Below, in pieces: positions 1 to 35,194 of a DNA stretch of 64,000 bases. Numbering within the stretch: the stretch's first letter is position 1; every line of letters begins with the position of its first letter. The notes under the pieces were generated by a model, which saw only the letters and a list, made by a program, of their open reading frames with translations, was not told where the DNA came from and did not search any database. The translations under genes were made by a program, and so were the position numbers. The DNA comes from Cyanidioschyzon merolae (taxonomy: Eukaryota). The DNA lies in NCBI GenBank assembly GCA_000091205.1, contig AP006483.2; one strand, written 5' to 3'.

Positions 1-311
1 CGGAGTTTCGCGCACTTGATGTTTCCCATGATTACATTGGTACTGGATGAGCAATCCAGACTGGAGACCAAGTTGCGCGATTTTGATTTTTCTACGACCC
101 CTCATGTGAAGCGGTGACGCACATTGCGTGGTGAAGCGATTGGTGCGGTGACTGAAGTTCTAGACCAAGACTGTCTTCCATCGAACCAGAAGATATGAGC
201 GCGCCTGGGAGCATGCCCTGTGGGAAGTATCAAGTCGGCGCTGAATACTGGTGCATGGATGTCCGCCAAAAGAAGAGGACTAGTCTCTCAAATGGAACTG
301 CTTATTTGACA
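1..311 (+). repeat. R1 direct repeat, copy 1 (about 305 bp). It is cut by the window edge, so it may extend upstream.
   Basis: Bases 1–311 match 9737–10046 almost exactly, in the same orientation, with only a few mismatches (e.g. gatttttctac vs gatttgtctac; cagaagatatg vs cagaggatatg). The alignment ends at ...aatggaactgc. Confidence 0.9.
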
Positions 312-2511
312 AGTTCCGTGAACGCTCGGCATGGGCCTGTAAAACAGTCTTCAGTCTAGCGACTTGAAAGCAGTCTTCACAAGTAGCCTTAAATGTGCAA
401 GATCCAAAACCTGACGTATACATTATTTCAGCGTGCTACACGCAAGTAGAGGAGAAGTACAGATTGTTGTACATAAGAAGTCGATAGTTATTTTGAGTGT
501 GTTACCCAATCTTTTCCGAGAAAGTCGCGAGTCATCATGATTCGAACGATGTAACGAGTTCGGAGGCTAACGAGTTGGATGAGCCACTGCAAAAAAAAGA
601 CCGAAAAAAGTAAACCTATGCACGAGTCCGTAAGCCCTAGTTGCTGCATTTTGGATGCCGAGGCTGTATATCTCACAAAAAGTTTGGAGAATTATCGAAA
701 TGCAGGAACAGATAGAGCTGTCCATTGTACAATTTTTATTTGGCATGGGTGTACCAGTAGTTGGCGTAAAGACGAGATTTCCCGTCCTACTGGACGACGT
801 TGGCTGCGTCTGAGATGGAAGGTTTCGGAGTCTGGCTTTAAGAATGAATGCACGAGAATCTGGCGCTTCTTGAGCGAGAGTGTCTTAAGGCGCAACGAGT
901 CCACAATGAACTCGAATCGTATGCCCATTCGCACGCATGCAAGCAATGAAACGTCCGTCATTGGCACGACTTCAGCATCCATTAGCATTCCTAAGGCGTT
1001 TCAGGTTGTCGATGATCAGTGTAGCATCTCCGATATTGAGAACCTCTCAGAGCGACATTATCCGAAAGATCTCCAGCGGGCGCCCTGTATTATACCGTAG
1101 AGCTGGTCAACCTCCGTGCTGTAACTGCACCGACGCCATGAGTGCTATCGCGGACGCTCAGGGCAAGCTCCATGCACGATAGAACGTGGAAGATAACCAG
1201 TATCTCCGAGAAAAAGAATGTCTATTGGGACATGGCAACAGGTTGAACGATGGATGCTTCACCGCGCCCTGAGATCGAGGGCGTAATCGGAGATTCGTGG
1301 CCTATGTAATCGAGCTGTAAAAATCAGTTGGCAGGTATGATCCAATAATGCACTATTTAGAAGCGGTGTAGGCATTCAACAGAAAAGGTCTCCTCGATGA
1401 CAGTCCACGAGAAGTTCTATAGCTCGACGACGCAAATGCTTCAGAGCCGTGCGAATATGGCTCTCCTTCCACAGGCCTTTCCATGCTGGAATGCCCTATG
1501 CGAGAAAAATTAAGCGAATCTACCGTTGTCGCAGATCCGATGCTTCTTGCACAGCGGACTTTGCTCGATATGTGCATGCGCCTCGCTCCTGGTTTACTTG
1601 AATATACATTGAAACGAGTAATGCACATGGCAAACGATTTTCGCGTGCATGAACAGCACTTTGCACGTCTTGCGAAGCCAATTCTTATTGAGGATCGCTG
1701 AGCGCCGCGAGCAAACCATGTCGAAATCCGTAAAATGATTCCGTACGATTGGACGCTTCCTAACTGCCGAGAGCAATCGCAAAATCGGAGGAATCATATC
1801 AGATTCATCGATGATGTATGATGAAAACGATAGAATGCGTTCGCCAGCATGGGAGCGATTGCCCGGAAGCATGCCATGTCTTTGAGTGATCTCATTGAAC
1901 CGGAGACCTCAGCTTTCTAGGCTCGGGGTTCACGCACATGGTCGCGGTTGAGTTACCTGAACAATTCCAGCAGATAAGTACAATTGTCTCTACTTCCAGT
2001 CCGGAAGGAAAGGATGATTCGAGGCAGGCGTGTAGAATAGAAAATCTCGATTGATTCAGTCAAGGGCTATTGGTACTATTCGTGACAAATCCACAACATC
2101 AGCCAGCACGATAGCTCGAGCGGAGCGATGCTAAGGTCGCTTGTAACAAGTCCGCAAATTTGAGACACTCGATCATTCCAGCTGGAAAAAAACTCGGATT
2201 ATTCCCATGTGACCCGTAGCATAGAGCAGCTCCGTCGTTCCAGTAGGGGAAGCCTTGCAATGCTCGTACGAAGCCCGCAGCATAGAGCCGCTCTGCCCAA
2301 CTTGGTTGTTCTAGCTTTAAACGAAAGAAACGGCGCCCCTGGCTATGCATGCCGTGTTGCAGCGGACAGGATGATGAAAATCCTCTTAATGAAGGCAACA
2401 TATGCTCCACAAGATTGTTCCCCTGAAATTGCACAGCACCTTATGTGCGCCCTACGACTGATGCTACACCTGAACTGCTCGTAGATCTTGCCACCTCTTC
2501 GAGACCGCAGT

Positions 2512-4488
2512 CTATTTGAAGTTGGCGGATCTAAGCCATCGATCGAGAAATGTCGCCGTCGTGGAGCTCCTGCTACTGGGAACCAGAGATGCTGCAGCAT
2601 TTGCATCTGAACAAGGTGCGGGCGCAGGCTTCGCGGAGACCCAGAGGCGAATGTCAAACTGCGCAGGAGCACAGGATCGGCCCCTGGGAAGAAGCGTTGA
2701 CCTCTGGCGTGCTAATTCCGTTGCACTATTCGAGTCGCCCATCAAAGGGTGGCCGCGTACAGGACCACCATCGCCGTCAGCGAGTATCGATGAATCGGTG
2801 TTCAATCGCGTTCGCTTCCCAGACGCATTTTCGTTTCGTATGAAAGCTTGGGCGAGCGGATCATTGTTTCCAAGGAGCATCCCGCATTTACTTGCGCACA
2901 TTGAACACACGTCCGGTCCTACGAGCGCATGCAAGCTTTCTGAGACTCGTCCAGGGGTGCTCCCAGTATTCTCAGGGAACCCAACGGCCTGTGAGCTGCG
3001 CTCATTGCAGACCGTTGCCGACTCTACGACGCTTATCCGTTCCGGTTCAGCAGCGGTTCCGAGGGGCGCAATAGGACCCCTCGGCAGCAGAAAGACAGCC
3101 TCGCACTGCCGCTCTCTCTCCATATCGAGCGCTGATTGAAGTAGCGAAGAAGGCTCGGTATGTCGATAAGAGATAAATTCCGAGAATCCAATGCCGACAA
3201 GCGTGCATCTTTGCTCAGTACAATCGTCCAGATTTTTCTGGAGAAGCTGCAGTGCCTGCGAGAAAAGTAGCCTCTGAGCTTGTTCTATAATGCCAAAGCT
3301 AGAGGTTGATACCAAACGCCTAATTGCAGCTTGCAGCGCTGAATGCATCCGGGTACTGCGAGAGCGTCGGCTTCCCTTACCAAGACGCCAGTATACCGCC
3401 ACTCGGCGTGGCAGCCGACCATACTGTTGGCCATGATGCTTCATTCTCGTTACACAAGCGAGCGCAAGTGCATACAGCTTCTCATGAAATGCCGCAGAGA
3501 AGAGCTCCAGTCCTGGGAAGGAATCCTCTACATGTATACGCTGAAGGGGACCTCGAGAATATACCTCCTCTGGGAAATCCCCTCGCGCTGCCAACCAAAT
3601 GTCTCGTGCTCGCTTCGCAAAGACTGCTGCAAACTTTCCGAATGTTTTTCGTATTGCATGTTCGAGCGTTAATGGAGAATCGAAACGCGTTCGGAGTTCT
3701 TTCACCGTTCGAACATGTAGCTCCTCCGAAAGCAGGCGTTCGAAGCGACGTCCCACGTATGGAAGCGATCGTAGCTCGAGTTCGGAGAGCCATGAGTCGG
3801 CCCTCACAGTGGGCACAAAGGTAGTTTGCCCATTCGGCTTATGCATATTCGCAGCAAACTTGGCGAGCATTTTGTTGAAACCCACCCCACAGGATATCGT
3901 TATTCCTGTTCGTTCGAACGCCGCATCCCGCATATTTTTGGCGATATCAGACCCAAGCGCAAGTCTGAGCTCTTCCTCGGGGCCTACGAGGCAAATATCA
4001 GGTTGCAAACTCTCGGGCATAAAGTCACGAGGAAAGACTGCGCCGACGTATTCGTTCAAAGGGCCTTTCTGGGCGCACTCTGCGTTCATGGAGCGGAGGC
4101 GTCGATCCACTACCGCGGTTAAATCAAAAATATATTCGTCTAAACCTACCGTTTCGCAACGATGCTCCCGACCCACTTCGTCGAGCGACCTCAGCTTTTC
4201 TTCGAGTGCTTCACAAATCCGCTCCTGGGCATCGCGATACGGTGTCAGGTCCTCTCCGCAAAAGAGGACGAGCTCTGGGCAGAGACGCTTCGCCTCGTCT
4301 ACTCTCATTAGTTTGCCAACACCGTATTTCCTAGCCTCATAGTTACAAGTCACCACAAGGTGTTTTTGGAAAACTGCAGCGGGCTTTGAACGGAGAGACT
4401 CGTCGCCAACTGCGTTCAACTCCACCTGACAGTAGAAATAGTCGGCGTCGAACACTGCAACGACTCGCGAGGCGTCAAGGTTAAACAT
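2512..4488 (-). CDS. Y-family DNA polymerase (Pol eta/RAD30-like translesion polymerase), 658 aa
   Basis: The N-terminus RVVAVFDADYFYCQVE matches the catalytic motif at the start of Pol eta (RVVALVDMDCFFVQVE). Also ITISCGVGFNKMLAKFAANMHKPNGQTTF (the SAGIAxNKxLAKxxxxxNKPNGQ motif) and LPYVGRRFERLL (thumb / helix-hairpin-helix). The ORF is uninterrupted. Confidence 0.8.
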   Translation of the reverse strand: MFNLDASRVVAVFDADYFYCQVELNAVGDESLRSKPAAVFQKHLVVTCNYEARKYGVGKLMRVDEAKRLCPELVLFCGEDLTPYRDAQERICEALEEKLRSLDEVGREHRCETVGLDEYIFDLTAVVDRRLRSMNAECAQKGPLNEYVGAVFPRDFMPESLQPDICLVGPEEELRLALGSDIAKNMRDAAFERTGITISCGVGFNKMLAKFAANMHKPNGQTTFVPTVRADSWLSELELRSLPYVGRRFERLLSEELHVRTVKELRTRFDSPLTLEHAIRKTFGKFAAVFAKRARDIWLAARGDFPEEVYSRGPLQRIHVEDSFPGLELFSAAFHEKLYALALACVTRMKHHGQQYGRLPRRVAVYWRLGKGSRRSRSTRMHSALQAAIRRLVSTSSFGIIEQAQRLLFSQALQLLQKNLDDCTEQRCTLVGIGFSEFISYRHTEPSSLLQSALDMERERQCEAVFLLPRGPIAPLGTAAEPERISVVESATVCNERSSQAVGFPENTGSTPGRVSESLHALVGPDVCSMCASKCGMLLGNNDPLAQAFIRNENASGKRTRLNTDSSILADGDGGPVRGHPLMGDSNSATELARQRSTLLPRGRSCAPAQFDIRLWVSAKPAPAPCSDANAAASLVPSSRSSTTATFLDRWLRSANFK

Positions 4489-6517
4489 GTGTACGAAGGT
4501 TCACAAGAAGTGAGAGCAAACAGTGAAGTGCCTCGTTAACGTCATCAAAGAGCTTTAGATAGTGGCCTTTGTCTGCATTTCTGAGCAACACTACAGTCGA
4601 AGGGAGAGCAAAGCTCTAACTGGTCGCAAACTATTCGACTGCAAACAAAGCTCTTCCTGGCCGAAAATTCTGCAGTGCAGAGCCACGGGGGGACGATGAA
4701 TGCAATCTAACATTGAGCTGCTCGCACTAGTCCAGCTTTTCAGTAAATCCGCTGCCTTGTAGGCGTACAGTATCGACGTTCCAACGGCAGCAATAAGACC
4801 TTAGGGATTCATACCAGCCTTTGCGGTTTTGGTCGTCTTTTAAGTGCGGCATCCTTGACTATTATCCGCTGCAACTTGTTACTTCACAGGAATAAAGATT
4901 ATTCGCGAATCCATCTAGTAGTGGTTCATAAAATAACCGATATCATTGCACAATTCACACGCAGAAGTGTCCACTCTTTGCCTCAAGTCACGTGCAGCGT
5001 GTTAATATAACGCGTCTTTCAAGCTGTCGATTTTTCTGCTCTGAGGCAACTCGCGTCCGCTGCACTTCGCGCCGTAGATTGACAGGGAAGAAAACTTGGC
5101 GTCGTCCCCGAGCGACTTCTCTACAAGCTCATGCTAAAAGCTCACTGAACATCTAACTTCAATTAATCGATACCGTCTGAAAGACGAATTCTCCTCGTTT
5201 TGTCACTATCGAAAATTTGGCATTGGATGGCAGCATGAGAACTCTCGCGGGATGTGCTCGCAGAGGCATCCGTCTCTTCAATTTGCATACAAAAACGGAC
5301 TTGGGCGCCGACAGTTCTCACCGCAGCCACCCTTCTCAGTGGAAAGGGCATCATCGCTTTGCAGGGGGGGGGTGCAAGGACGGCTGGAAAATTCTCGGCG
5401 TCTTCTCTAGCTTTGAATATTTTTTCTGGCGCATGATCCATCGCGGACATCAGTGCATTCAGCAAACCCGTTATCGAACAGGGTAGCGTGCGCCTGCATA
5501 TGTAGCGATCAGAGAACTCGCTGAGGAAATCGCTCAGACGAAGCCCGTGAGCGTAGAGCATGGCACGGGGCGTTGAAACGGAGGAGGGTACCGTGGCGGG
5601 GCTTCTGCATATTTCAAGCGCGTGTACCGAGCGTTTTTGCAAGCGTTCATGCCCCGCAGGACGGAGTTCGTCGTGGGATGTGTGGTATACGAATTGGAAC
5701 ACTTGACTAAAGTCTAGCGTTCCAGCTAGGAGGAGCACACCCAGGCTACATACAAATGCGATGAAAATGGCGAGCGAAGTTTAGATCGCAACTGCCGTCT
5801 GTGCGGGAAATGCGCAGACAAGAGCAGGAAACTGCGTTTTTCCGACGTTAATGCTGCCGTCATCATCTTGAGAGTGTTGAAACCGGAGCTGGAAGAGAGG
5901 GTTAAACTGGCGTATTTTACGTCAAATACACGAGAGAGGAAACGGAATTAGAAGCAGAAAAATCCGCAAAGGCTCGCTCTGATGATATTAGGAAGAAACC
6001 GAAACATCAATGAGTATGCGCGATTTAACTGAGTGGACCCACTCCGTTTTAGTCTGACAGGATGCAACTGAAGACTCATCTACACATATCCTCACAACTG
6101 GGTCATTCTGGATGCGCGACAAGGAGCCGAAGCAACGGGGACTACGCTGCACCACCCTCTGCTGCAGGCTTTTGCGTACCAACGAGTCTACGATTAGTGC
6201 TCTTCTGAATATGCAGGCTTGCCGCATGGTTGTGTGACGATGAGCTCCAGAGCGCGAAACTCTGACAGCAACACACTCCAAAACACATTGAAGTGTCGTT
6301 TCTAAGCTGCAGGTCGCTGGGCTGGTTTCCTTTCCTCAGTGACAGGAAGAAGAGCACAAGTATTTGAAAACCTCCCTTGACGAAAGCATCATTTCGCTAC
6401 GTTCCACTCTGACGTTCTAGAAGCTGTCGAACACCTTCCGTGGGCAGTGCTTCTTCATACCTGAGGGGATAAGCTTCCCGGCGGCGGCCGACTGTTGGTG
6501 GTGGCTCGTGGAGAAGC

Positions 6518-7948
6518 TTGACGCACACGGGACAACGAACAATAAGCGGACTTCTGGAAAGATACTCTCCAGTGCCTTTTTGGGAATTTGCGAGTTTCTG
6601 TCTGCACTCTCGCACTGTCTGTGAACCGCAGGTGGAGGCAAGAGGTTGGCACCGGAGACGACGTGCGGCAATGTCTCGTACTGACAACGTCGGCGTTTCC
6701 AGAACCCTGAACGCTGCACCGGTTGGAGCACCCAACGCTGCTATACCATCAATGCCTTTCGGTAACTTACTCCTTGTGGGGAGCTGCACTCTGCTCTTTT
6801 TATGCCAACAAGCGTTGCAAATACCGCTATCAGCAGTATGCATCGATCCGGAGCTGCAGATTTCCAGCAATACGTACCGCTTATTCACCGCTCCTTTTTT
6901 TCATGTGAACCTTGTTCACATCTTTGCGAATATGATTGTGCTGCTGGACATTGGGCCTCCGCTTGAACGCCGCCTTGGCTCCTTTCTCTTCCTATTCATT
7001 GTTTTTCTCATGATTTGCGTCTCTGGTGTTTTTAGAGCGATTTTGGCGATGTCTGTTCGGGTCGCCTTGACACCCTTCGAAATGTCGACTAGAGCGCCCC
7101 TGCTGCCGCTCCTTTCGTACATCCGTCGGCAGACGCACGCCTGTGCGGTGGGATTTTCGGGCGTGCTTTTCGCTTTCTTGGTGATCCACGTCCACCAGTT
7201 CGTCGCGACGGATATCCTATGGATACTGGGAGTCGTTCCATGTCCGTCACGCTTCTATCCTCTGGCATTGTTGGTACTACTTCAACTCATGGTTCCAGCT
7301 GTGGACCTTTGTGGTCATCTAGCAGGTATGCTGGTTGGTTACACTTACGTTCGAGGCTGGCTATGGCCGCTGCTTGTTCAACTCATACCGGGGGGGTTTA
7401 TACGGAACCTTGATGAAATACTTGGCTCCCGGATAACAGTCTGGGCAGCAAAGCCTTCCGATGAGGAAGGCAATATAATGCGGAGCAATAGGTTCCATCC
7501 GAGCACAACGGCAACCTCATTCTCATCTATGTTCGAAAATGGTGCAAGATTCTTCGAGTCGCTTCTCCGAAGAGTATTGCCGTCAAGGCGATCGAGCCAA
7601 ACGCGGATGCAGAACAATCTTGACGAGTCAGTTGAAAGCGGCATTGCAGCAGAGGTTAACACGGACCGTAACCAAGACGTTATTCTTTATGCTGATACGC
7701 ATGAAACGGAAACGCAAGCTCCAGTCGAGCAGCTCGTTCGAGCAGGGTACCAGCCGAATGATGCGTTCGAAGCGCTCGCGGAGGTACAAGGGGACGTAGT
7801 GGCGGCTAGGCTGATCATCGACACTCGGCTTACCGCACAGCTGGTCGAAATCGGGTTTGATTCGACAGATATTGAGCATGCGCTGCACTCAGGCTGCCCC
7901 AAAACCATCACTGCAATCGTTGAATGGATTAGTTCATTAGAGCATTGA
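6518..7948 (+). CDS. Rhomboid-family intramembrane protease with C-terminal UBA domain(s). The likely true start is the Met at 6671.
   Basis: There are multiple TM segments. The rhomboid catalytic Ser is in GFSGVLFAF and the His is in the GHLAGMLVGY helix. Two UBA-like segments (EQLVRAGYQPNDAFEALAEVQGDVVAARLII; QLVEIGFDSTDIEHALHSG...AIVEWI) sit at the C-terminus. Confidence 0.7.
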   Translation: MTHTGQRTISGLLERYSPVPFWEFASFCLHSRTVCEPQVEARGWHRRRRAAMSRTDNVGVSRTLNAAPVGAPNAAIPSMPFGNLLLVGSCTLLFLCQQALQIPLSAVCIDPELQISSNTYRLFTAPFFHVNLVHIFANMIVLLDIGPPLERRLGSFLFLFIVFLMICVSGVFRAILAMSVRVALTPFEMSTRAPLLPLLSYIRRQTHACAVGFSGVLFAFLVIHVHQFVATDILWILGVVPCPSRFYPLALLVLLQLMVPAVDLCGHLAGMLVGYTYVRGWLWPLLVQLIPGGFIRNLDEILGSRITVWAAKPSDEEGNIMRSNRFHPSTTATSFSSMFENGARFFESLLRRVLPSRRSSQTRMQNNLDESVESGIAAEVNTDRNQDVILYADTHETETQAPVEQLVRAGYQPNDAFEALAEVQGDVVAARLIIDTRLTAQLVEIGFDSTDIEHALHSGCPKTITAIVEWISSLEH

Positions 7949-8021
7949 GAGTGCGCTCTTCGTATGGAGAGCGGTGGAAGCCGTCTGCGTAGCTGAATGC
8001 CTCCTCCCTGCGCAGGGTGCT

Positions 8022-9017
8022 TCAAGTGCGAGAACTGGGCTGGACCTGGAAAAACGTACAGGCAGCCCACATTCCGAGTGTGACAAAGGCGCTGACCACA
8101 CTTGCAGGCTGTAACCATTCAGGCACTAGACCGACGGCGACTGCCTGCTCTATGTTGAACCAGCTGACGAGGGCGAACGCAAGGACGAAACCAATGCCTC
8201 CGAACATGAAAACGAGGCCCATCGTTTTCAGTGCTGCAGGTCTGTTAATGGGGCGCACCTCGCCAACGTTTCCAAATTCATCACGTCGAACCTCTGGTTG
8301 GCCTCTGTTGTATAAAAACGCCATGCTGGTGATGAAAGAGATCGGCAGCGAACTGGTCGCAAACCGTGGAATGAAAAATCCCAAAAGGCCAAGAATCGCC
8401 ATGATAATCGAAGTCTTTCGGAGGTACTGCTTCTCTGGCACTTTGAAGATTCCATAAAGAAGACCTCCAGGGCTAGTGAGCTGCCGACCAAGCCAGCTTG
8501 TCTTCCACCAGGGCTGCTTCCGCAGCCGCTTCTCCAGCGGTGACTCGCGCACTATACCCTCTAGTTTTCCTTGAAGACGGCGTCGGAGCTTATCGTCAAA
8601 TATCTTGTCCCGCAGCACCTCAAGCTTCGAAAGCTGCTTAAAATCGTCTGCGTACTTGATTTTCAGTTTCTCGAACGCTTCCTGGATTTCTTCGAAGGTC
8701 GCACTCTCAGAAACACCAAGTTCGCGATACGGATTCGTGCCGTCGCCGAAACCAGTGCCAGTCCGCCTGCGGCTGGAGCTCGAGCTGTCCCGCGTGGAAC
8801 GTCGAAAAAACCAAAATAGAGCTGTTAAAGCGAAAACTCCTTGAGTCGAACCCCCAGGCAGTTGTTTCTGCGGCCAAGCGCGCTGAGTATGAAATTTTCG
8901 CAAGAACCCGGAGCGTCGGCTGCTACCGAAAGTTCCAAGACAAATCCTCCTTTGTAAAAACCCAGGCCACCGTGCTGAGGTAGGAGAATTACTATGTGCA
9001 AAAGAAGCAGAAAACAT
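8022..9017 (-). CDS. Membrane protein with a J-like domain, CPP1/CDF1-like, 331 aa
   Basis: An S/R-rich N-terminal extension is followed by a J-like helix region, NPYRELGVSESATFEEIQEAFEKLKIKYADDF, which lacks HPD. After this come 3–4 hydrophobic TM helices (IIMAILGLLGFFI..., MGLVFMFGGIGFVLAFALVSWF..., VVSAFVTLGMWAACTFF). This architecture matches plant and cyanobacterial CPP1/CDF1 proteins. Confidence 0.5.
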   Translation of the reverse strand: MFSASFAHSNSPTSARWPGFLQRRICLGTFGSSRRSGFLRKFHTQRAWPQKQLPGGSTQGVFALTALFWFFRRSTRDSSSSSRRRTGTGFGDGTNPYRELGVSESATFEEIQEAFEKLKIKYADDFKQLSKLEVLRDKIFDDKLRRRLQGKLEGIVRESPLEKRLRKQPWWKTSWLGRQLTSPGGLLYGIFKVPEKQYLRKTSIIMAILGLLGFFIPRFATSSLPISFITSMAFLYNRGQPEVRRDEFGNVGEVRPINRPAALKTMGLVFMFGGIGFVLAFALVSWFNIEQAVAVGLVPEWLQPASVVSAFVTLGMWAACTFFQVQPSSRT

Positions 9018-9736
9018 TCTTTTTGCAAAAGGCAGTGTTTGGGTACCGAAGTACTCGAAGCACGACTACTGAGCTTCTCAAAATAGCTGCAGACAATCAT
9101 CGCCGTCGTCCGCATGCGCATCGCAGAGTAGTCGCTGGCGGCACCCCCAAATCAGAACGAACTTGAAAGGGTCTACTTGGCTACCTCGGGCGTATACTCT
9201 AAACATTGGGCGTCTCCCCAGTGTCACCAACACAAGCCGTTGTGAGCCTTTTCTGAAACTGCATCGCTTCTCGTTCTCATCTCTCGCTTTAAGCTCGCCG
9301 GCTTCTAAAGTCCCTTCCGCTCTATCGCCAGCATTCGAAGGGTGATGATCGCGGCGTGATAACCCCGATTAACCTGTTTCCTGATGTCTTCTGTGCTTTT
9401 TATGCACAGGCAAAAGTTGCGATCTAAACATCACTGGCAACTACTCCCTTTCGTGCGTTCGGCCTGGATGCGCACTCCGCAATGGTATCACCGGGCTGTG
9501 ACGGGGGTTTCTCAAACGTCCACAACTCTTCCTTTTCAGCGCACCGCCATGTCGAGCGTGAACGCGTGCTTCATGGCTCTATTGCATGCCCTTGACGGGT
9601 ACAGAAGGCTATCGTCGATGCCCTGCTCCGGTTTTGCCCCAATTAGAGTGTCCAACGAGTACGGGCGTCTTTCTAGGCGATAGCCTCGGCGAGTGCATTG
9701 TCTGTTGCACACGCAAGCGCAAGCTGTTCCGTGCGA

Positions 9737-10046
9737 CGGAGTTTCGCGCACTTGATGTTTCCCATGATTACATTGGTACTGGATGAGCAATCCAGACTGG
9801 AGACCAAGTTGCGCGATTTTGATTTGTCTACGACCCCTCATGTGAAGCGGTGACGCACATTGCGTGGTGAAGCGATTGGTGCGGTGACTGAAGTTCTAGA
9901 CCAAGACTGTCTTCCATCGAACCAGAGGATATGAGCGCGCCCGGGAGCATGCCCTGTGGGAAGTATCAAGTCGGCGCTGAATACTGGTGCATGGATGTCC
10001 GCCAAAAGAAGAGGACTAGTCTCTCAAATGGAACTGCCTGTTTGAC
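9737..10046 (+). repeat. R1 direct repeat, copy 2
   Basis: Near-identical to 1–311. It lies 0.7 kb upstream of the start of the minus-strand CPP1-like gene. Confidence 0.9.
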
Positions 10047-11126
10047 GAAAAACCTTGAGTAATCTTTCCGCACACGTTTGCGAACAAGTCGTCAAAGGAT
10101 TTTGTCGCGTTTTTTTCTATCTCAATCCAACTTCTCCAATAATTGAGCCCAATTAGTTGCAGTAAGACAAAATAGATCAAAGCTTAAAGATGGGTTCTTT
10201 TTGCATTCTACACGGAAGAAAAAGGAAGACAACAGATTTTTTATGAGGATGAATAGTATTATGGTATCGGTTGTTTCACGAACTCTCGTTCGAAGGTGTC
10301 GCAAATCAATTTGTTTCCGGTGACGTTACGAATTCCAACTGCAACATATCGAGGGAACCACTCCAAAAAAGCACCTTAAAATCCGAAAACTACCCGCGAA
10401 TTCAATAGCTCTTATTGCTACTGCTTGAATGTCGAGGTCCTCTAACCAAAGAAAGTTTGAGAAGTCGAAAGGCATTAACACTGCAAGCAGTTATATGTAC
10501 AGCGAAGAAAACAACATTCGTTCTACCACCATAGAGGATACATTGATACACACGGATAGACGCCACCCAGACTTTCTTGACTGGCCTCCTCAAATTGTTT
10601 CGGTTCATCCAGGTACAATAATAGCCTGAGAGACTGGTCCACGAAAATAGGTCACCTCAGCTCTTCGAGTATCTTCTTCAGTTCTGCAAACCGTATGATA
10701 ATGATGGCGGTGTTAGAATCATGGTTCACGAATTGCTTGCTTTTAAAGCCTCTGGTGGCGCAGATCTATGCAAGGGTTCCTCGCACTCGCGCCCTCTGGG
10801 CGACTGCAGTCTCGTCATCTTGCCGTCAGGCAAACAACTTTTCTCGCCTATCTCCCCTCGACTTCTTCTTCATTTGCTTTTCTTCTCTCGGTGGGCGATG
10901 AGAGAAGGATTTTTGCTCTTTGTTTCCGAGGGGCATGCGATGACGGCCCTCCAGGATCCCCAGCATTCATGCCGATACCTTTCCCTTAGATTTTTTACTT
11001 TTGAATATGAAAGCACACCGACCTCGTCTGCTATAAACCGCGAGAAAGCATTCCATTACACTCTCCTAGGGTTGGAGCGCAGTCGAAATGAAACACTATT
11101 CACACTATCGCCTTCGATTATAGCCA

Positions 11127-25258: not shown

Positions 25259-25837
25259 TTATGCACTAGTTAGGGCTATGGCTAAGAAGATCGCGACTGC
25301 GGCAGACACGCTGCCAAGGATAGCGGCTGGCATGACTTTCCTCGTTTTGGCATATCTGATCCCGAACACGACAGTCAACACAAGGGAAACGCCAAGCGCA
25401 AGGGCTATTGATGATTGTGAGTATGCCACCCCAAGGAGTACCGCGGCACCTAAGCCGCTAATAATACTAGCCTTTGACTTGGTGCGCGCATAAGCACCCA
25501 CCCCACCTACTGCCATAACGGCCGCATAGACAAGGGTAACAATTTTTACAGTCTCCGTCATCGTGGCGCGCAGCCGGCCGAGCCGGCTTCGTTTGGAGTT
25601 GTAAACTTCAGAGGGCGAAGCATGCAGCACTCTCCCAGCTCGAGACGGAACCAAAGCACGCCCAGGGAGAGCACTGCGCGGGACACCCACGCGAGGAAGC
25701 GTTGAAACCGAACAGTAAAGTTTGCTGCGCTCCTTATGAAAAACCTTCGCCTTATCTGGAACAACTACTGTAAACATAACTAGTCTCACAAACTGGAACT
25801 GGCGGTGGCGAACGCTACTCGAAAAGCTCGACAACAA
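25259..25837 (-). CDS. TMEM14-family membrane protein (FAX-like) with an N-terminal presequence of about 90 aa. The core starts near the Met at 25561.
   Basis: The C-terminal 100 aa has four TM helices with the TMEM14 motifs YAAVMAVGGVGAYARTKSKASIISGLGAAVLLGVAY and ILGSVSAAVAIFLAI. The N-terminus is R/S/P-rich, like a transit or presequence. Confidence 0.65.
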   Translation of the reverse strand: MLSSFSSSVRHRQFQFVRLVMFTVVVPDKAKVFHKERSKLYCSVSTLPRVGVPRSALPGRALVPSRAGRVLHASPSEVYNSKRSRLGRLRATMTETVKIVTLVYAAVMAVGGVGAYARTKSKASIISGLGAAVLLGVAYSQSSIALALGVSLVLTVVFGIRYAKTRKVMPAAILGSVSAAVAIFLAIALTSA

Positions 25838-28540
25838 CAGCGAATTTGTTTGAGCTGGCTGTGCGCAAAGCGTGCACCTCCTGAACGCTTTGCAATCGCG
25901 CGCTGGAAGTCAGGATTGAACTAGATTCTCACGCCACTGGCTTTACAGCAACATGAGAATAAACTGGTACGAGTCCATTCAGCTAGCTTGCGCGTGCACA
26001 TTAGAGTTTGGGTCTCTTTCCATTGCCGCTATGACCCGCCTTTGCTGGCTTTCTCTGCGAATGCTGCCTTTTCCTCGCATATTTCAGGCACTAAGTACGC
26101 GGGTGTCTCCTTTCTCGCAAGCTCCGTTGCCAGCTACCGGAAGAGGATAACGGCAACGTTCAGGCTCTGGTGGCGAAATTTTGGGTTGAAGCCGACGCAT
26201 CTCATGCACAGAGGGAGGTCACGATCTACGCTTCGCTTGATATTCTCATCTTCTTTGTTCAAAGCCGCGGTACGCACGTCGCAGTCGTGGGGTTTGGTCG
26301 TGGTCATACTGTCTTTTTTTGTCCAAAATACCGCCTCTTCTGAAGTCTGCCTGTGGCGCAGGAAGACCGCTTCATCGCTTTGTAGATGTCATTTACTAAT
26401 ACTATAGGCACCGCTCGATGCGCCACTCTGTTTCCAGCACGGTGACGTACATTTTGGTCACGAGCTTCTTATTAGCGATCCCCAATGCTATTATTCTGTC
26501 TGGTGCTCGTTCAAGGGCACGCTGTTCCTTTCCATAGAGGATTTATTGAATGGGATATTGTACATGATGAAAAGAAGACCGAAAGGAAAATCCAAGCTGG
26601 AGAAAATCGAAAAATTCCTTTCGGTGAGGGCTCCATTCGTACAAAAAGATTTCTAAATCTCTACCGGAAGCGATATCTACGACGCCTGAACTGCGAGTCG
26701 AAGAACACATTCATTCAATATAGAAGAGGCAGGAGCCTCTAAGAGCATATTCCGTAAGAGGTACTATGTCAGTGCCGATTCCCGTTTCTTCGATGACTCC
26801 AGAACGAGGGTAATTGGGGTCTGTAACGGAATCGATTATTTTGCATGACGAGTATAATGCAATTTCGGCATGAGCTTGTGAAACAGTCGTCAAGGGACGA
26901 CTCTGGATTCTTTTCCTGTTTCATTTAGCGACGCGAATGGATCCGCCCATGGGTTGCCTTGGACAGAAAGATCAGAACTTCAGAAGTGTGTGATTTGAGC
27001 ATGCCACAAGCAAGGAACGACGGTGAGTGGAGGCTTCTACCTGTGAATTGAATAATGATATCGAATATTTTACGGAAATTTGTTCGAAAGCGTCGCGAAT
27101 AATCGCAATGCTCACGATGTAACAAATTCTGACGGCAAAAAGTCGAATGAGTCACTCCGGAAATGCGGCCAAGAATCTTAAAACTGTGTATGAATCCACA
27201 CGCCCTGGTCGCTGGAGTTCGAATGTCGAGGCTTTCTATGAAAACATAAAGTTTGGCAAAAATCGAAATGTGGGAACACCGCGAAGATTTCGGAGCCCCT
27301 TTTCGTTCTGGCGCTGGTGAAGCAAAACATGCGGACTTGGACATCACACCATGAAACCCTAGACACCCAATAACAAATGATTCCCCGTAGATAAAAAGGG
27401 TTGGGCTTTCCCTTCTGTAGGTTGAAGAAACTGTTTTTCCAAAAATTAAACTTGTTCGATAAAAGTAGGATGCCGCATGTGCCTCGAAAAAAGATAACAG
27501 CTGCTAGGCCCGCTTTCCCTGATTTCTTTCCCAATTCGTCTCCATTCTCCTTGCTTTGGAGGTACGGAGCTATGTTCTTTGATGATATTTAATCGAAAAA
27601 AGGCTCCATTGAAGATCTGAAAAGATGAGCCAGGTGCGATTTATGTATTTCCGCACTTGTGTATAAGGTCTTATATTTCTCTAATGGATGTAGAAGGGCG
27701 TTTTCCTCACCATTCGACCGTGAAATCCTTGTCCCATGCCCCAAGCGATTTGAATAACACTGCGGGATTTGTCTCGGAAGGTTCGGCATTCATTTCTCAC
27801 GCAAAAAGCCAGGATTCAGCCTTCAGGGTCAGGGAATGCGGAGATTTTCCCCCGGATACGGAGAATGTGGGGTGAATAGAATACAGATCATTGCTCGGTA
27901 CTCTCGAATAATGGAGCACCGCGAAGTTTCACCGATTACCCAGCAAAATCTTGCTCGACGTTCATATATCGGGCACCAGCCTTTCTGGATTTCTGACTGG
28001 ATGATCCGCGTGCCCTACTCCAGGCATGCATCCACTGCCATCTCCCCGAGCCACTGATGTTTTGCATCGCTAGGCTCCAGCGTTTCAGCATCGCACCCCA
28101 AATTCGTACCGAAAGATGGCTTCGACATTTCGATAGACACATAGCCGTTTGGCGCTACGGAAGCCCGAGCCGCTTCCCGCGGTTGGTCGATGCGTTCATG
28201 CCTCGGTTTACGAAAGTGCTCGAGCACGTTGCGGGGCAAGCTCACGCCCACCAGAGAAAACCTCTCGCCTTCGATTGCAACGCAGTCGGACACTCCGTCA
28301 GCACATCGAACACCACCTCATGCATCCGTCTATGCTTCACGACAATGTTCTCTATCTGTGTCAGCGAACACCGGTACTCAAGACGCGCGTGTGCGTCGCT
28401 CTCAACATATCGACGTGAATCTTGCAGAATCGATCCCGGGTGTCGTGGTACGCTCTCATGGAAAGCGCAGGCGTGCTGCAAATGCGCGCCGCAGCCCCTT
28501 CAGTACCATACACTGCCACCATCATGCGACGCGACTCGAA

Positions 28541-29655
28541 GGTCATTACCATTCCAACCGGTTGAGCAAGCTGGCGCAAGCGCGCTTCTTGCCTCCCTAC
28601 AGCCGAGGGCTTCGGCGATCCCAGCACGGTCTCATGTACTCCTGCCAGAGGTAGTGCGCATATGACCTTTGCTCGCTCACGTACGCTCTGGAGCGGGGCA
28701 CAGGGCAGCTCATGGCGGGTGCGGGCAGCGATCTATCAGTCGGAGACCTCCGGTTCGACGGCTGGGAACCACTCGTCTTGAGACCCGCGAGCGTAAAATG
28801 GCGTTTGACAAGAGAGCACACGCTTTGTAGTGGATTGAACCAGAGGACAGCCTGGCACGCAGAGCAGCTCGACACCTGTCTCAACTGCGTACGGCTTGAC
28901 CGCGTGTGATTGATGGCGACCGACGTTATCGAAGCGCTGAATAGAAGGATATGCGAAGGAGAAGCCAGTGAGCGTGCGTCGACGGAGGACGCGGTGTTGA
29001 GCGGTGCTGTACTTTTGGGAACGTGTAGGCGACCGCTGGATAACATCGTCGCTCGAGAAGGTGTTGTCGGAATGCTCGCGTGGCTCTTCTTTACGAACAG
29101 CTGTGTGCGCCTCCCTGAGTAGCCCTAGTCAGGTCTGCTAGTTCTCTAGAATAAGGTCGCATCGAGCGAGACGAAGACGCATCCCTGCAGAAGTAAGCTT
29201 TCGCGCCTCACTGCGACGTCGATAGAGCAGCGTTCAGCGCGGGACACTGGAGTCTAAGAGCGTGCTTTGCGCTTTGTCTACCCGCATCTCCTGCTCTCCG
29301 CTCGTGTGACGGGGTAGGGGATCTGCGCGCACTGGTGCCTCTCTGAGTGTACGATTCAGGAAACGTATGGAGTGGCTTTGATTCCCGTGGAGAGAATCTG
29401 CTAGGCAGAGAATGCTATGTTCTCTTTTGGATGTGCGCTGCTCAGGATGAAGGCATCGACACAGGTGGTTCATCGACCAGGTTAACGCGGATGTACTGAC
29501 TCGTAGATTTCAAGGGGTTATTGTCTGGCTCGCTTCAGCGTAGGGAAAAGCGCCTTCTCGACCTTCCCGCAGTCTACAGGAAACCTTCATATTGCAGATT
29601 ACCTACGATAAACAACGGACAAAAGTAGAAAGTTAGAGTAGGTAGAGGCTTTCCA
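28541..29655 (+). repeat. R3 direct repeat, copy A (1115 bp)
   Basis: It reappears at 34080–35194 at about 98% identity. The same ORF set is found in both copies: a 149-aa minus-strand ORF, 65- and 70-aa plus-strand ORFs, and a 79-aa minus-strand ORF, with 1–2 substitutions each. None has a recognisable coding signature. Confidence 0.9.
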
Positions 29656-30534
29656 ACACTTTCTCCATCGAGGTAACTGCGCGCTTAAATTTTTGACAAG
29701 ACATTACCACTGACCACGGATCCCATACAGCGGGATGGATGTTGGCTTTCAAGAAAGTGTCCATAATGGTGTTCCGCATCTTCAAGTATCATGACCCAGA
29801 ATTCGTCTAGGATGCACAGATTGTTTTGAACATTCGATTGTGTACAGAGCCTGTCGTAATCGCCCGCCGCAGCGGATGCAGCATGGAGACAGTACGGCTC
29901 TGCTATACCACTGAGGGCGTCCGCTCGACGCACGGTTCGCTAGTCACAGGATCGGGATTTATCATTATTGTGAGAGCCTGGAATCTGTGCATACGCACTT
30001 TCTGCATGCAGCAGCACGAGGCGATATGCTAAGAGACCACCGCGATCAGGGCGACGCCCGGACACTGCTTTAGCACCCCTAGTCCCGGAATAAAGTGCGT
30101 TGCGGAGTTGCTGTTCAGGTCTCGCAACTGCAGCCAACACTGCAGAGGTGCACCGAGCACGAACCTGGCAGACTCGTCCTTCTCGCGGGACCTTCCGCCG
30201 AGAAGGAACAGTTTTGAAAATGCGGAAGTCTCTACCACCTTTTACAGCCTACCATAGAATACGAAAGCAGTTGTTATCTAGTTGCTAGATAGTGGCTAGT
30301 TTCTGTTCTTTTAGCGCAGTTGCAACTTGTAAGTGGATAGTTTCTTTCAGCGAGCTTTGATGAGCGGCGCATACCTTCTGGAATCATCCGCTCAGTGACG
30401 GAAGTAGCATGGAATTTTGGATAGTTTCTTTTCGAAAGAGTTGCTGCCAACAGTGTTCTATTGCAGACCGCACTACTGCAGCCGATTCCGGTTGATGCCG
30501 TGCTCATCAACGTGAAGCAGCGTTTGTAGCTCCT

Positions 30535-33500
30535 TTACAAGTATAGAGACGCAGCGAAAACTATATCTCGATGAAGTAGTGCACTGCTCTGGGCAAACTT
30601 GGCACTCAGAGCTGCGTCGCCTACTGAATCAACCGCGTTACGAAGCTGCTGGAGGACCTCATCGACCCGGCGCATGCAGCGTATGAGACTTCCCTCAAAA
30701 ACTTTCGCAAGTTTCAAGGCTTCAGAGAATGGCTGGCCTTTGCACCACGCATGAATAGCGGAAATGATGTTGGGGTCCCAGTTTGGTTCCTCACAAACGT
30801 ATTCCCATCGCAGACCGGCGTCTCTTTGGACTCGGGCAATACGGCCCACGACGCGGTGAATATCCTGCTGTACCTTTTGCAAATGTTCTCTGATATCCGC
30901 ATCTTCTGCTACAGCCATTTGGCTGTCTTTGGCTTTCTCATCCAGCACAAAACCGCTCAGAATGGCCGGTATCAGGGGCTCTGGCATGTCCCTGAGGATG
31001 CCTTCGAAGATGCATTCAGTCAAGATGAGTTCGTTTGCTGCGCTGATCTCGCAGCATACGCGGCCCTTGGGAGAGAGCTGTTTGTTTTCGTCGAGGTAAC
31101 CGAGCGCGTGAAGAACCCGATTCATCGCTTCGAGCTCGGCAGCATGAATAAGATGACTTCTGACACGTAAGTCCCTCTGGATTTTCTCCGCTTGTGGAGC
31201 AAGTTGGAGACGCAGCCCATAGAGTTTGATATCCTCATGTAACTCGGGTTTCGATGCAGCGCACTTGCGCATTTCCTGCACTAAGCATCGGCGTTCGTGC
31301 ATCAACGCACGCAAACTTTTTTCCCGAATGCCAAAGTCGTAAATCGGGTCCAAGAGCGGCAAGCCGCCGCCAACCGAGGCGTAATGGCGCTCTGCCGACT
31401 GCACGCGTTCGCTGATGATGGAGCGACTCATTTCTGTATCGACTGTTTCGGGCATTTCGATGCAAACCGCCGATATCAACTGGATCAGTGAGCGTTGCAA
31501 GTTTTGTAGACGCCATACACCGTCGACTTTTCTTCGGAATACGGAAAATCCGTGTGTCTTATTCGGAAGGCCGCAGCATTTTGGATCCATAACGACGGAC
31601 CAGTGCTGGTCATCCCGTAGTTTCAGAAGCCGACCATTCTTCAAAAATAAGTCAACATTCTCGCACCGGTAGTAGCGTGATATGTTCCGGTCTATTTCAG
31701 CTAATCTCTGATTCAATTTGTAGAATTGCTCCACCTCTTCTTCTTCGTGTGTAAAGTGCATTTGCTTCATTTCGGCCTCTAGGTTTTCCAATTCCGCAAC
31801 CGCGTTTTCCGCCCGTTTCACTGCCTGAAATTGGGCGAAGGACCGGACCATAATTTGCTCCGGACGAGACTCCTCTGACCGTTGTAAATTCAGTAGCATA
31901 TTGTAGCCAAGGCGGAAAGCGCTGGTCAACTCGTCCGGACGACCAGAGAGGATTCGACGCAGGCAATCCTCGTTGGTGTCATCTTCCAGTCTCAGAATCA
32001 CAATGCCCCGCTCATCCAGACCTCTGCGCCCAGCACGGCCGGACATTTGGATGTACTCGCCACTCGTGATGTACCGCACATTGCGCCCGTCGAACTTTTT
32101 CAACGCAGTGAAGAAAACCATCCGCGCAGGCATGTTCAGTCCCAGGGAAAATGTTTCTGTAGCCAACAGAACTTTCACGAGACCCTCCTGAAACAGAATC
32201 TCGACGATTTCCTTAACAATGGGAAACAAACCTGAATGATGAACACCAACGCCTCGTTTCAGCATTTCGAGCATCGTGCCGATCTGGTCCAGCTGTTGGT
32301 CTTGCGAGTTCAACGTCGCCATTGCATTCTGGTAGACGTTTTCGACGAGTGCTTTCTCTTCCTCGCCATTCAGGTCCATTCCAGAGATGCAGCGCGCCAG
32401 AGCTTCACAATCCTTGCGGCTGAACGAGAAAACAATCATTGGCTGCAAGTCCTGATCGATTGCAAACCGAATGATTTTCCGAAACTCCGCATTCGAGAGG
32501 GTGCGGCCTCTGCTCGGTCCGCGAAATCGATCAATCCTTAAATCCTTCCGGATTCGTTCGAAATTTTTGCGATAGAATCTGCCGCCCTCGTCTTTTAACA
32601 AAACGAGTCGGTCTTCCTGATTGGAAAGCGCGAAATGGCGAAGCGGCACGGGTCGTTTTTCGGTATAAACTGTATGACAGGGGGCTTGATGGAGTGCCAC
32701 AATCCATTCGGCAAATTCTTCGGCGTTCGGAATTGTTGCCGAAAGGAAGACGAAGCGAACACTGTCTGGAAGCAGAATAATGCTCTCCTCCCAGACGACG
32801 CCACGCTCACGATCGCGCATGTAATGAACTTCGTCGAAGATGACCCAAGCGGCCTCTCGAACAACATCGGAGCCCCTGTACAACATGGATCGCAAAATCT
32901 CAGTGGTCATGATCAAACAGCTCGCATTTGGGTTCAGCGTCACATCACCCGTAATGAGACCAACATCATTGAATTCGCTTTGAAATTCTCGATATTTCTG
33001 GTTGCTTAGAGCCTTAATTGGCGAGGTATAGATGACCCGACGATGCTCACGAAGCGAGAGCGCAATAGCGTATTCTGCAATGGCAGTCTTTCCGGCTGAG
33101 GTATGCGCTGCAACCATGACAGATTCTCCCGCTTCCAAGCATTTGCAAGCTTCAATCTGGAACAAGTCTAAAGCAAACGGGAATTCTTTCGCTGGGGGGC
33201 GTCCTTTCGGTGGCCAAACAGACAGCTTAGAAGAATCATATTCAGAGAGTGACGCTGGAATAGACACAGTATGGACGCACGCGCAACGACTACCTGTGGA
33301 GAGGTCGAGCACGCTCAGATCATCTATCACAGCGTCAGCTTGGGAAGGCTCTGAAAGAGAGGTTTTGCCGGTTTCTGTCAGGGTTTCAAGCGTCAGCGTC
33401 CTCGGCCGCGAGCCACTGAGCAGAGGGTGTTTGAGCCGCAGCTCCGCCGCGCTCTGCCCAATCCAGGGCGGATCAGACTCGACCTTTGAGCCGGTTGGAT

Positions 33501-33675
33501 CCAATGCATGCTGAGCAGCCGGACGAAAGCGCTTCCTATTTCCATCGCGACGAGCACGGTGCGGGACCCACGAGTTGGAGCCGTGCTGTGCTTCGCGACG
33601 CTTGGTCGCTGTCGTTGAGCGCTTCTGTTCAGCTTCTGAGCCTAGCACCTGCTTGGCGTGTACTTTTTTTCTCAT
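30535..33675 (-). CDS. MTR4: DExH-box RNA helicase of the SKI2/MTR4 family (exosome cofactor, MTR4/SKIV2L2-like), 1046 aa
   Basis: [43 protein letters not shown]...[18 protein letters not shown]...[27 protein letters not shown]...[19 protein letters not shown]...FLSATIPNA (motifs I–III, DEVH). Also [21 protein letters not shown]...GRAGRRG (motif VI), then an arch region and a DSHCT-like C-terminus. The length fits MTR4 better than SKI2. Confidence 0.85.
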   Translation of the reverse strand: [1046 protein letters not shown]

Positions 33676-34079
33676 TATTCTGTAAAAGCGCAGAGGACTC
33701 GTAGGTTCGTGCCAACTTTAACACCAAACACAAAGCGAGTTTGAACAGCGCCTGATGAAATCGAGTCTCAAACACAATTCTCTGTGCACGAAGCCCGACG
33801 CTATTACGCCCCAGATTCGCTGCTCATATGCATACGAATAAGTATCTCTGTTTCTGGGAAAGGGCTTGTTATGGCAAAATATCTGAGGACAGCAAGAAAT
33901 CTCCTGCGCGAAACAACGTCACCAGGTGAGAATTATATGGTTGGCTGTTTCTTATATGAGAAGGAAGGCCTCGAAACTCTGTATACAGCGTGAAATATCA
34001 CCTCGGCCCGGACCTGAGAACCTCTGCGGCTTGGGTGCGAGGCAGGTCGTTTCACGCGCTAAGGAAGCGCGAGTGGGAC

Positions 34080-35194
34080 GGTCATTACCATTCCAACCGG
34101 TTGAGCAAGCTGGCGCAAGCGCGCTGCTTGCCTCCCTACAGCCGAGGGCTTCGGCGATCCCAGCACGGTCTCATGTACTCCTGCCAGAGGTAGTGCGCAT
34201 ATGATCTTTGCTCGCTCACGTACGCTCTGGAGCGGGGCACAGGGCAGCTCATGGCGGGTGCGGGCAGCGATCTATCAGTCGGAGACCTCCGGTTCGACGG
34301 CTGGGAACCACTCGTCTTGAGACCCGCGAGCGTAAAATGGCGTTTGACAAGAGAGCACACGCTTTGTAGTGGATTGAACCAGAGGACAGCCTGGCACGCA
34401 GAGCAGCTCGACACCTGCCTCAACTGCGTACGGCTTGACCGCGTGTGATTGATGGCGACCGACGTTATCGAAGCGCTGAATAGAAGGATATGCGAAGGAG
34501 AAGTCAGTGAGCGTGCGTCGACGGAGGACGCAGTGTTGAGCGGTGCTGTACTTTTGGGAACGTGTAGGCGACCGCTGGATAACATCGTCGCTCGAGAAGG
34601 TGTTGTCGGAATGCTCGCGTGGCTCTTCTTTACGAACAGCTGTGTGCGCCTCCCTGAGTAGCCCTAGTCAGGTCTGCCAGTTCTCTAGAATAAGGTCGCA
34701 TCGAGCGAGACGAAGACGTATCCCTGCAGAGGTAAGCTTTCGCGCCTCACTGCGACGTCGATAGTGCAGCGTTCAGCGCGGGACGCTGGAGTCTAAGAGC
34801 GTGCTTTGCGCTTTGTCTACCCGCATCTCCTGCTCTCCGCTCGTGTGACGGGGTAGGGGATCTGCGCGCACTGGTGCCTCTCTGAGTGTACGATTCAGGA
34901 AACGTATGGAGTGGCTTTGATCCCCGTGGAGAGAATCTGCTAGGCAGAGAATGCTATGTTCTCTTTTGGATGTGCGCTGCTCAGGATGAAGGCTTCGACA
35001 CAGGTGGTTCATCGACCAGGTTAACGCGGATGTACTGACTCGTAGATTTCAAGGGGTTATTGTCTGGCGCGCCTCAGCGTAGGGGAAAGCGCCTTCTCGA
35101 CCTTCCCGCAGTCTACAGGAAACCTTCATATTGCAGATTACCTACGATAAACAACGGACAAAAGTAGAAAGGTAGAGTAGGTACAGGCTTTCCA
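34080..35194 (+). repeat. R3 direct repeat, copy B (1115 bp), about 400 bp upstream of the helicase start
   Basis: Near-identical to 28541–29655. Confidence 0.9.

Follow-up and report, generated by a model that had tools for sequence, protein, structure and literature searches.

Low-copy repeats that evolve in concert by interlocus gene conversion have been described in several systems, including the low-copy repeats of human, the dispersed repeats of yeast and paired long terminal repeats (LTRs). Here we analyze three pairs of direct repeats, designated R1, R2 and R3, that are located on chromosome 1 of the alga Cyanidioschyzon merolae 10D, within a 64,000-nucleotide stretch of DNA referred to below as the window (contig AP006483.2, assembly GCA_000091205.1). 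The near-identity of the two copies in each pair is probably upheld by gene conversion between them. As a minimal model eukaryote, C. merolae 10D is in wide use; it has been described as nearly repeat-free and is valued for its efficient homologous recombination.

The C. merolae 10D genome has been finished from telomere to telomere, with a chromosome 1 of 422,616 bp, and no LTR retrotransposons have been reported in it (PMC1955436). A novel interspersed repetitive element was found in this genome in 253 copies, which have a mean length of 3.2 kb, occupy approximately 5% of the genome and carry a truncated WSV486-like open reading frame (ORF) (Nozaki et al. 2007, PMC1955436); the published description of this element mentions neither near-identical local pairs nor gene conversion. 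Direct repeats have also been put to practical use in C. merolae, where their pop-out by homologous recombination serves for the recycling of the URA marker (PMC8504449).

R1, R2 and R3 resemble known low-copy repeats in several respects. They are intrachromosomal, approximately 1 kb long and at least 98% identical (98.4–99.8% identity over 877–1374 bp between real copies), private alleles occur in both copies of a pair, conversion-like tracts form mosaics, and the divergence that remains is concentrated at the block edges. Being in direct orientation, the copies could also undergo deletion by non-allelic homologous recombination. In contrast to typical low-copy repeats, they are small (0.9–1.4 kb) and wholly non-coding, and they reside in a 16.5-Mb, very repeat-poor haploid algal genome, where they flank single-copy, probably essential genes. 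They also differ from a fresh duplication, in that at least one of the pairs appears to represent two old interspersed-repeat copies that have been homogenised.

Three direct repeat pairs on chromosome 1

Self-comparison of positions 1 to 35.2 kb by BLAST recovered exactly three long, high-identity direct pairs. Within the window, R1 occupies positions 1–310 and 9737–10046 with 98.4% identity (five mismatches). The full R1 unit, as defined from environmental contigs, is 877 bp long; its copy b spans 9170–10046, whereas copy a is cut by the window start and is represented by the 3'-terminal 310 bp of the unit, the remaining 566–567 bp or so lying upstream of the window. In one environmental contig (L017), both 877-bp copies are 100% identical. 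R2 occupies 11127–12499 and 19981–21354 (1374 bp, 99.8% identity), with a core of 1354 bp (11137–12490 in copy a) that is 100% identical between the copies. R3 occupies 28538–29655 and 34077–35194 (1118 bp, 98.4% identity, 18 mismatches). The copies of R1 and R3 have diverged to a similar extent in 10D (5/310 and 18/1118, both 1.6%), which hints that both duplications are of the same age.

All six copies read on the plus strand, and the copies of a pair, 0.9–1.4 kb each, are spaced by 5.5–9.7 kb. The three repeats and the 1.08-kb spacer between R1b and R2a (10047–11126) are mutually unrelated in sequence; their common orientation therefore means only that each pair is direct. The earlier note on this DNA, which had reported three successive near-identical direct pairs within 35 kb and proposed a comparison of the sequence with itself, is borne out as to the pairs, but their ends had to be corrected: R1 was truncated by the window, R2 is 9–10 bp longer and R3 starts 3 bp earlier. 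Its description of the region as otherwise unique turned out to be wrong, as approximately 6.6 kb of the window lies in old repeats of 65–77% identity and many of its intergenic stretches have matches of this level at other loci.

Each repeat unit is non-coding and intergenic. R1a is located approximately 0.5 kb upstream of an HSP90 gene, which lies outside the window on the minus strand, and R1b is located 153 bp upstream of the start of a CPP1-like gene. R1b lies inside a longer old interspersed-repeat copy, since the family homology runs on into the spacer. R2a precedes a small ORF, ORF145 (12518–12955), and an Hcf106/TatB-like gene (12792–13661), while R2b fills the spacer between the L32 and HMGL genes (HMGL start codon at 21411). 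R3a is found 0.9 kb downstream of the 3' end of the MTR4 helicase gene, and R3b lies in the divergent intergenic region between MTR4 on the minus strand and ORF371 (36028–37143) on the plus strand.

The window corresponds to chromosome 1 of the finished 10D genome. Its DNA polymerase of the IMS family is 100% identical over 658 amino acids to the 10D protein annotated as DNA polymerase iota, RAD30 (BAM78772.1), with nine residues differing in the environmental relatives of this protein. Hot-spring metagenomes contain 10D-like populations that are approximately 0.5–0.8% diverged from the window (contig identity 99.0–99.5%, about 99.3%), and 10D-like Cyanidioschyzon has been reported as dominant at Lemonade Creek, Yellowstone (PMC11662350). 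The complete arrangement, beginning at HSP90 and extending across R1, R2 and R3 past ORF371, was recovered on environmental contigs of 20–175 kb that come from at least eight samples, and all 11 repeat/unique junctions in the window are each spanned by 5–13 environmental loci from independent samples. Short metagenome contigs end inside the repeats, as true repeats would make them do. R1, R2 and R3 are real low-copy direct repeats of the C. merolae 10D-type chromosome 1.

Probable gene conversion between the paired copies

The junctions of all three pairs are identical in 10D and in the environmental lineages; hence the pairs are older than the split between these lineages. Unique DNA of the window differs from the environmental contigs by 0.2–0.8%. 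In the R2 core of 10D, no differences are observed over 1354 bp, compared with approximately eight or more that would be expected if the two copies had evolved independently (Poisson P ~3e-4).

We further compared the alleles of five R2 pairs, each taken from a single genome. The pair of Ga0078972_1000423 retains differences between its copies, with T10, C1153, T1233, C1343 and C1365 in copy a and A, T, C, G and G, respectively, in copy b. In 10D, copy b has the alleles of copy a at sites 1153–1343, and the alleles G312 and A455, which are private to 10D, occur in each of its two copies. In the Ga05047xx populations, the b-like sequence of copy a extends to the very edge of its own flank, which is of the a type, and in Ga0080006 both copies share the mosaic C-T-G-G at sites 1153, 1233, 1343 and 1365. 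Population-private variants, namely a deletion at 379, T493, T393 and G390/G461, likewise occur in both copies of the genomes that carry them.

The other two pairs display related patterns. At the polymorphic R1 sites 299, 309 and 854, both copies of a genome always agree, while the edge sites 869 and 871 are position-specific in all lineages. The R3 copies differ at 18 sites in 10D versus one to three in the other genomes, and at sites 1048–1076 both 10D copies read CACC where AGTA is found elsewhere. In the pairs that appear converted, that is, R2 in 10D and both R1 and R3 in most environmental contigs, the leftover differences are located at the block edges, as expected because the ends of conversion tracts vary. 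Two R3 sites, 50 and 129 (28587/28666 in copy a and 34126/34205 in copy b), carry G50/T129 in copy b of 10D and in copy a of Ga0078972_1000423, in which copy b has T/C at these sites (L009/L010). The swap may stem from an exchange between the copies that looks reciprocal, or else from wrong phasing in the assembly of Ga0078972_1000423.

We consider it probable, at about 0.72, that the near-identity within the pairs is upheld by non-allelic intrachromosomal gene conversion, as part of the best overall explanation of this locus. Concerted evolution of the copies was among the possibilities raised by the earlier note, and the shared private alleles, the absence of differences in the R2 core and the tract mosaics all speak for it. 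In the scenario that we favor, old interspersed-repeat material would have expanded the intergenic regions of C. merolae after its split from its relatives, with R2 clearly and R1 partly made of this material, and intergenic repeat copies would have arisen or been overwritten around genes that stayed put. Homologous recombination would then repeatedly copy one repeat onto its partner without crossover, with the extent and direction of the tracts varying among natural lineages. Were the direct copies to cross over, the enclosed genes would be looped out, which is presumably lethal in a haploid, and conversion products alone would persist; we infer that the crossover products are eliminated by selection.

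By analogy with other organisms, the genes at stake are probably essential: a crossover would delete MTR4 in the case of R3, SMC together with Hcf106 and L32 in the case of R2, or CPP1 together with the polymerase and rhomboid genes in the case of R1. The suggestion that each repeat-flanked cassette could pop out is plausible as to the mechanism, which is the one used for marker recycling (PMC8504449), but the event would probably be lethal, and no deletion allele was found among the contexts of the R3 ORF (93 index blocks, 24 of them read). The engineered URA5.3 recycling (Takemura et al. 2018/2019, outlined in PMC8504449) concerns the same organism and a segment that likewise lies between direct repeats. 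In that system the deletion product is selected for, whereas at the locus studied here deletion would remove probably essential genes, and only non-crossover conversion is seen. Two environmental contigs, L015 (JGI 3300057138, 5839 bp) and L016 (JGI 3300050388, 5662 bp), contain a single R3+MTR4 period of 5539 bp plus an overlap of 300 and 123 bp, respectively. The overlap gives a junction in which R3 is flanked by unique sequence on both sides (U-R3-U), and three readings suit this junction: a loop-walk artefact of assembly, a tandem duplication and an excised circle.

Several points weigh against the conversion scenario. Short-read metagenome assemblers may thread a repeat-unique-repeat loop through one collapsed repeat node, which makes the identity of both copies in environmental contigs weaker evidence; the argument for conversion rests mainly on the 10D genome, which is finished, and on Ga0078972_1000423, whose copies differ. 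With a divergence of 1.6% in 10D, R1 and R3 could be explained for the most part by a simple, fairly recent duplication without much conversion in this strain. Pairwise local alignment against shuffled sequences detected no significant old homology outside any pair (the R1 and R3 blocks and the 5' side of R2), and comparison at the level of the repeat family was informative at the 3' side of R2 only. No other young pairs were found in approximately 0.46 Mb of other loci, a search of low power given that many of these loci are shorter than 10 kb. The tie of R3 to interspersed repeats is weak, that the enclosed genes are essential is an assumption carried over from other organisms, and the clustering of three pairs within 35 kb is not explained.

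Ectopic gene conversion of this kind is a well-known phenomenon, with low-copy repeats being homogenised by non-allelic conversion; its importance here is modest and current understanding is not overturned. C. merolae has long been regarded as asexual. Under the favored scenario, ectopic conversion has acted both in the 10D lineage and in wild hot-spring populations, providing a natural read-out of recombination in this alga. The added value lies in resolving conversion tracts at the level of populations in a model alga and in a repeat family that sits directly upstream of genes. On the practical side, the repeats mark three sites on chromosome 1 where gene-targeting constructs, polymerase chain reaction and short-read mapping could mis-target or collapse, and they are substrates for assaying deletion or circle formation.

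Ancestral gene order and the origin of the second copies

Pfam searches confirmed the gene content that the earlier note had assigned to the three cassettes, with the polymerase, there called Pol-eta-like, being Pol iota/RAD30 in the 10D annotation. The R1-enclosed block (311–9169) contains ORF173 (579–1100), for which there is no homologue, the IMS-family polymerase (2512–4488, minus strand), a rhomboid gene (6671–7948, plus) and the CPP1-like gene (8022–9017, minus). The R2-enclosed block (12500–19980) contains the Hcf106/TatB-like gene (plus), an SMC gene (15522–19073, plus) and a gene for bacterial-type ribosomal protein bL32 (19501–19866, minus). The R3-enclosed block (29656–34076) contains the MTR4 helicase gene (30535–33675, minus).

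Two related genomes were used as outgroups, GCA_041825655.1 (71% amino acid identity in MTR4; 41.7 kb of the locus reconstructed) and Cyanidiococcus yangmingshanensis (GCA_026122185.1). Both share the gene order HSP90-Pol-rhomboid-CPP1-TatB-Tmemb14-SOUL-HMGL, which in GCA_041825655.1 runs on with L32-SMC-MTR4-ORF369-KH-aminotransferase. The sole rearrangement of the window relative to these genomes is one inversion of the SMC-L32-HMGL-SOUL-Tmemb14 block, with breakpoint intervals at 13662–15476 (left, within the R2-enclosed block) and 25778–30534 (right, containing R3a). As the inversion is absent from both outgroups, it is derived in the C. merolae lineage. The outgroup loci contain no long repeat, no R-like sequence and no R2 motif. 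The L32–HMGL spacer measures 168 bp in the outgroup versus 1545 bp in the window, the latter being the 1374 bp of R2b plus 171 bp. The intergenic regions of C. merolae at this locus are 2–9 times longer than in both related species.

The lineage-specific novelty is thus the repeats and not the cassettes, and the enclosed genes sit in their ancestral positions. Apart from the inversion, the cassette gene order is conserved in both outgroups, and recent segmental rearrangement, another explanation put forward earlier, finds no support as far as cassettes that moved or were rearranged are meant, as the order is ancestral and the ends of the inversion match no repeat pair. Three related candidates were rejected. 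Insertion of a cassette into a duplicated target, whether of the Campbell type or at a staggered cut, and tandem duplication followed by gene loss are both at odds with the ancestral order in the two outgroups and with the L32–HMGL spacer, which equals the outgroup spacer once R2b is subtracted. Repeat-mediated inversion was discarded because the breakpoints lack inverted repeats and the positions of the pairs do not fit them.

For the origin of each second copy, we infer different routes. In the case of R2, family-type sequence goes on past the boundary of near-identity at both sites, but the leaders differ: on the R2a side, ORF145 shares a stretch of 53 amino acids with the leader at an acyl-CoA synthetase site, which the R2b side does not. 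Identical R2 bodies on different old flanks point to homology-driven overwriting of pre-existing family copies, and the replacement of a pre-existing old family copy in this manner is the most likely origin of the second R2 copy. In the case of R1, the old family homology spans R1b into the spacer and stops at the R1a boundary, which argues that R1a is a truncated partial copy. Both R1a and R3a possibly arose by templated partial duplication, and for R1 and R3 a repair-associated event of this kind, perhaps tied to the inversion, is a live alternative to conversion.

As an account of the whole locus, the rival that survives best is unlikely. On this view, segments of 0.9–1.4 kb were copied to intergenic places 5–10 kb away in one or a few recent events of replication or repair, for instance by templated insertion of the kind known from microhomology-mediated break-induced replication or fork stalling and template switching (MMBIR/FoSTeS), possibly in the same event as the inversion, so that near-identity would mostly reflect youth and conversion would be secondary. 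The equal divergence of R1 and R3 in 10D, the location of R3a inside a breakpoint interval of a C. merolae-derived inversion, the truncation of R1a, which lacks the family homology continuing past R1b, the appearance of R2b as a clean 1374-bp addition to the outgroup spacer and the absence of significant pairwise homology in the flanks all agree with such an origin. Against this, the R2 copies of 10D are identical although the pair is older than the split between 10D and the environmental lineages, and the conversion tracts differ in extent and direction among lineages. The R2 bodies also sit on different old family-type leaders, for which overwriting is a better fit than insertion into naive DNA; furthermore, the inversion breakpoints match no pair ends.

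Clearly less probable is the view that R1, R2 and R3 are active mobile elements, each of which hopped once locally. R2 does behave as a discrete unit, whose ends coincide in its three copies in the window, and it belongs to a dispersed family, and R2b looks like an insertion relative to the outgroup. However, the units possess no terminal inverted repeats, target-site duplications, TG..CA ends or poly-A tails, and no transposase or reverse transcriptase was found by Pfam among their ORFs. The termini read CGGAG.../...TTGAC in R1, where the 5' end is the window-truncated start and not the true unit end, TTCAG.../...GCCGA in R2 and GAAGG.../...TTCCA in R3, and the flanks do not match each other. 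Other sampled members of the family are approximately 30% diverged, with no young copies elsewhere in the sample, across 93 index blocks the R3 ORF turned up nowhere but at this locus, and the family homology reaches past the near-identical R2 block. Three unrelated sequences would moreover each have to hop once, and locally. For want of terminal inverted repeats, target-site duplications and a transposase domain, the units do not conform to DNA transposons or miniature inverted-repeat elements either.

Even harder to sustain is the idea that the identity reflects strong purifying selection on duplicated regulatory modules and not recombination. The R2-family units end in a conserved 22-mer and a TATA-like box directly upstream of genes, and the two copies of R1 precede genes of the chaperone type on the minus strand (HSP90 and CPP1-like), as this idea would have it. 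Yet selection cannot make new substitutions private to a lineage, or a 1-bp deletion, appear identically in both copies; the units evolve between lineages at an ordinary neutral rate of 0.5–1%, and other family members have drifted to approximately 70% identity.

The pairs are almost certainly not the LTRs of retrotransposons or the arms of composite transposons carrying the enclosed genes as cargo: the geometry of direct repeats of about 1 kb (0.9–1.4 kb) placed 5–10 kb (5.5–9.7 kb) apart would suit them, but the interiors are ordinary cell genes in ancestral synteny with two outgroups, no gag, pol or integrase was found there by Pfam, TG..CA termini and target-site duplications are lacking, and the three pairs are mutually unrelated; on these grounds this candidate was rejected. 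The notion of artefactual duplications made by genome assembly, an issue that the earlier note had also left on the table, is refuted: it could draw on the exact identity of the 1354-bp R2 core and on some short metagenome contigs that stop within repeats or form one-period loops, but the telomere-to-telomere 10D genome matches the window, the independent samples give the full arrangement with every junction spanned, and position-specific differences at the repeat edges are kept across assemblies.

The R2-type repeat family and other old repeats

A third, older member of the R2 family was identified in the window at 45903–47274 on the plus strand. It is approximately 70–72% identical to R2 over the body and 82% at the 3' end, and its 5' and 3' limits coincide with those of R2a and R2b; all three copies end in a 22-mer characteristic of the family, AAAAAGRCTGGGAGGCSTCTGC. 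This 22-mer is located at 12475–12496 at the 3' end of R2a (AAAAAGACTGGGAGGCCTCTGC), where it is followed by a TATA-like box, at 21329–21350 in R2b, approximately 60 nt upstream of the HMGL start codon, and at 47252–47273 in the old third copy, approximately 60 nt upstream of an aminotransferase start codon (47333).

Scanning public metagenomes for this 22-mer yielded 60 loci (L027–L086), which represent 20 distinct genomic contexts in contigs of 10D-like populations. Many of these contexts carry R2-like bodies of 70–75% identity and varying extent, and among these loci, R2 copies of at least 98.9% identity occur only at the locus described here. R2 is a member of an old intergenic repeat family that is dispersed over no fewer than 20 sites with approximately 70% identity. 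Directly after the 22-mer come a TATA-like box and a short leader that is conserved, and in at least six contexts verified genes start 22–151 nt downstream of the 22-mer; the six genes encode an acyl-CoA synthetase, a DAGAT-like enzyme, an RsmB-type methyltransferase, a TPT transporter, HMGL and an aminotransferase. R1 and the R1b–R2a spacer have relatives of 65–74% identity at other loci, while R3 has almost none in the approximately 0.46 Mb sampled.

The R2 family is possibly identical to the 253-copy element described by Nozaki et al., a lead suggested by the occurrence of R2, parts of R1 and the spacer in dispersed, diverged intergenic families at many C. merolae-type loci. In addition, R1b, the spacer and R2a together measure 3.3 kb, which is near the reported mean size of that element.

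More tentatively, the R2-type repeats might act as portable promoter/5'-leader modules, given their position 20–150 nt upstream of the start codons of many unrelated genes. Conversion between neighbouring modules, and possibly the excision of blocks as circles, at which the U-R3-U junctions of L015 and L016 might hint, could then rewire or couple the regulation of adjacent genes. We regard this reading as doubtful, but if it is true, the repeat family would supply a sizeable share of the promoters in this 'simplest' eukaryotic genome. Irrespective of such a role, the present data draw attention to an unstudied interspersed repeat family located immediately 5' of genes.

Pfam searches with the ORFs inside R1, R2, R3 and the old R2 copy revealed no domain (best HTH_23, E = 0.15), and when the 249-aa ORF of the old R2 copy was used as a query for homologues, no sequence other than itself was retrieved. 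Over the whole window, neither Rfam at the gathering threshold nor ARAGORN produced a match.

The region around R2a contains two further features. Within the R1b–R2a spacer, an inverted 3' module of the R2 family is located at 10558–11011 (approximately 66–72% identical) and is aimed at CPP1; as it lies upstream of R2a, the CPP1–TatB intergenic region holds two modules that face outward. Immediately after R2a, the N-terminal 53 amino acids of ORF145 are 47% identical to the N-terminus of the acyl-CoA synthetase ORF located behind a different copy of the family (L051 and four sibling loci). This stretch has a YAF(L/V)TPA motif, is out of frame with TatB and has homology at one other site only; a leader remnant and a targeting peptide, for instance a plastid transit peptide, are both conceivable.

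Further fragments of old repeats, all intergenic and 65–77% identical, were identified at 524–710, 5062–5288, 23277–23377, 26458–27278, 38465–39007, 49597–50474, 59209–59432 and 62082–62357. Finally, an intergenic tandem repeat is located at 50506–51038, with a 185-nt unit in 2.9 copies (91% matches) that is overlapped by no ORF of 120 aa or more.

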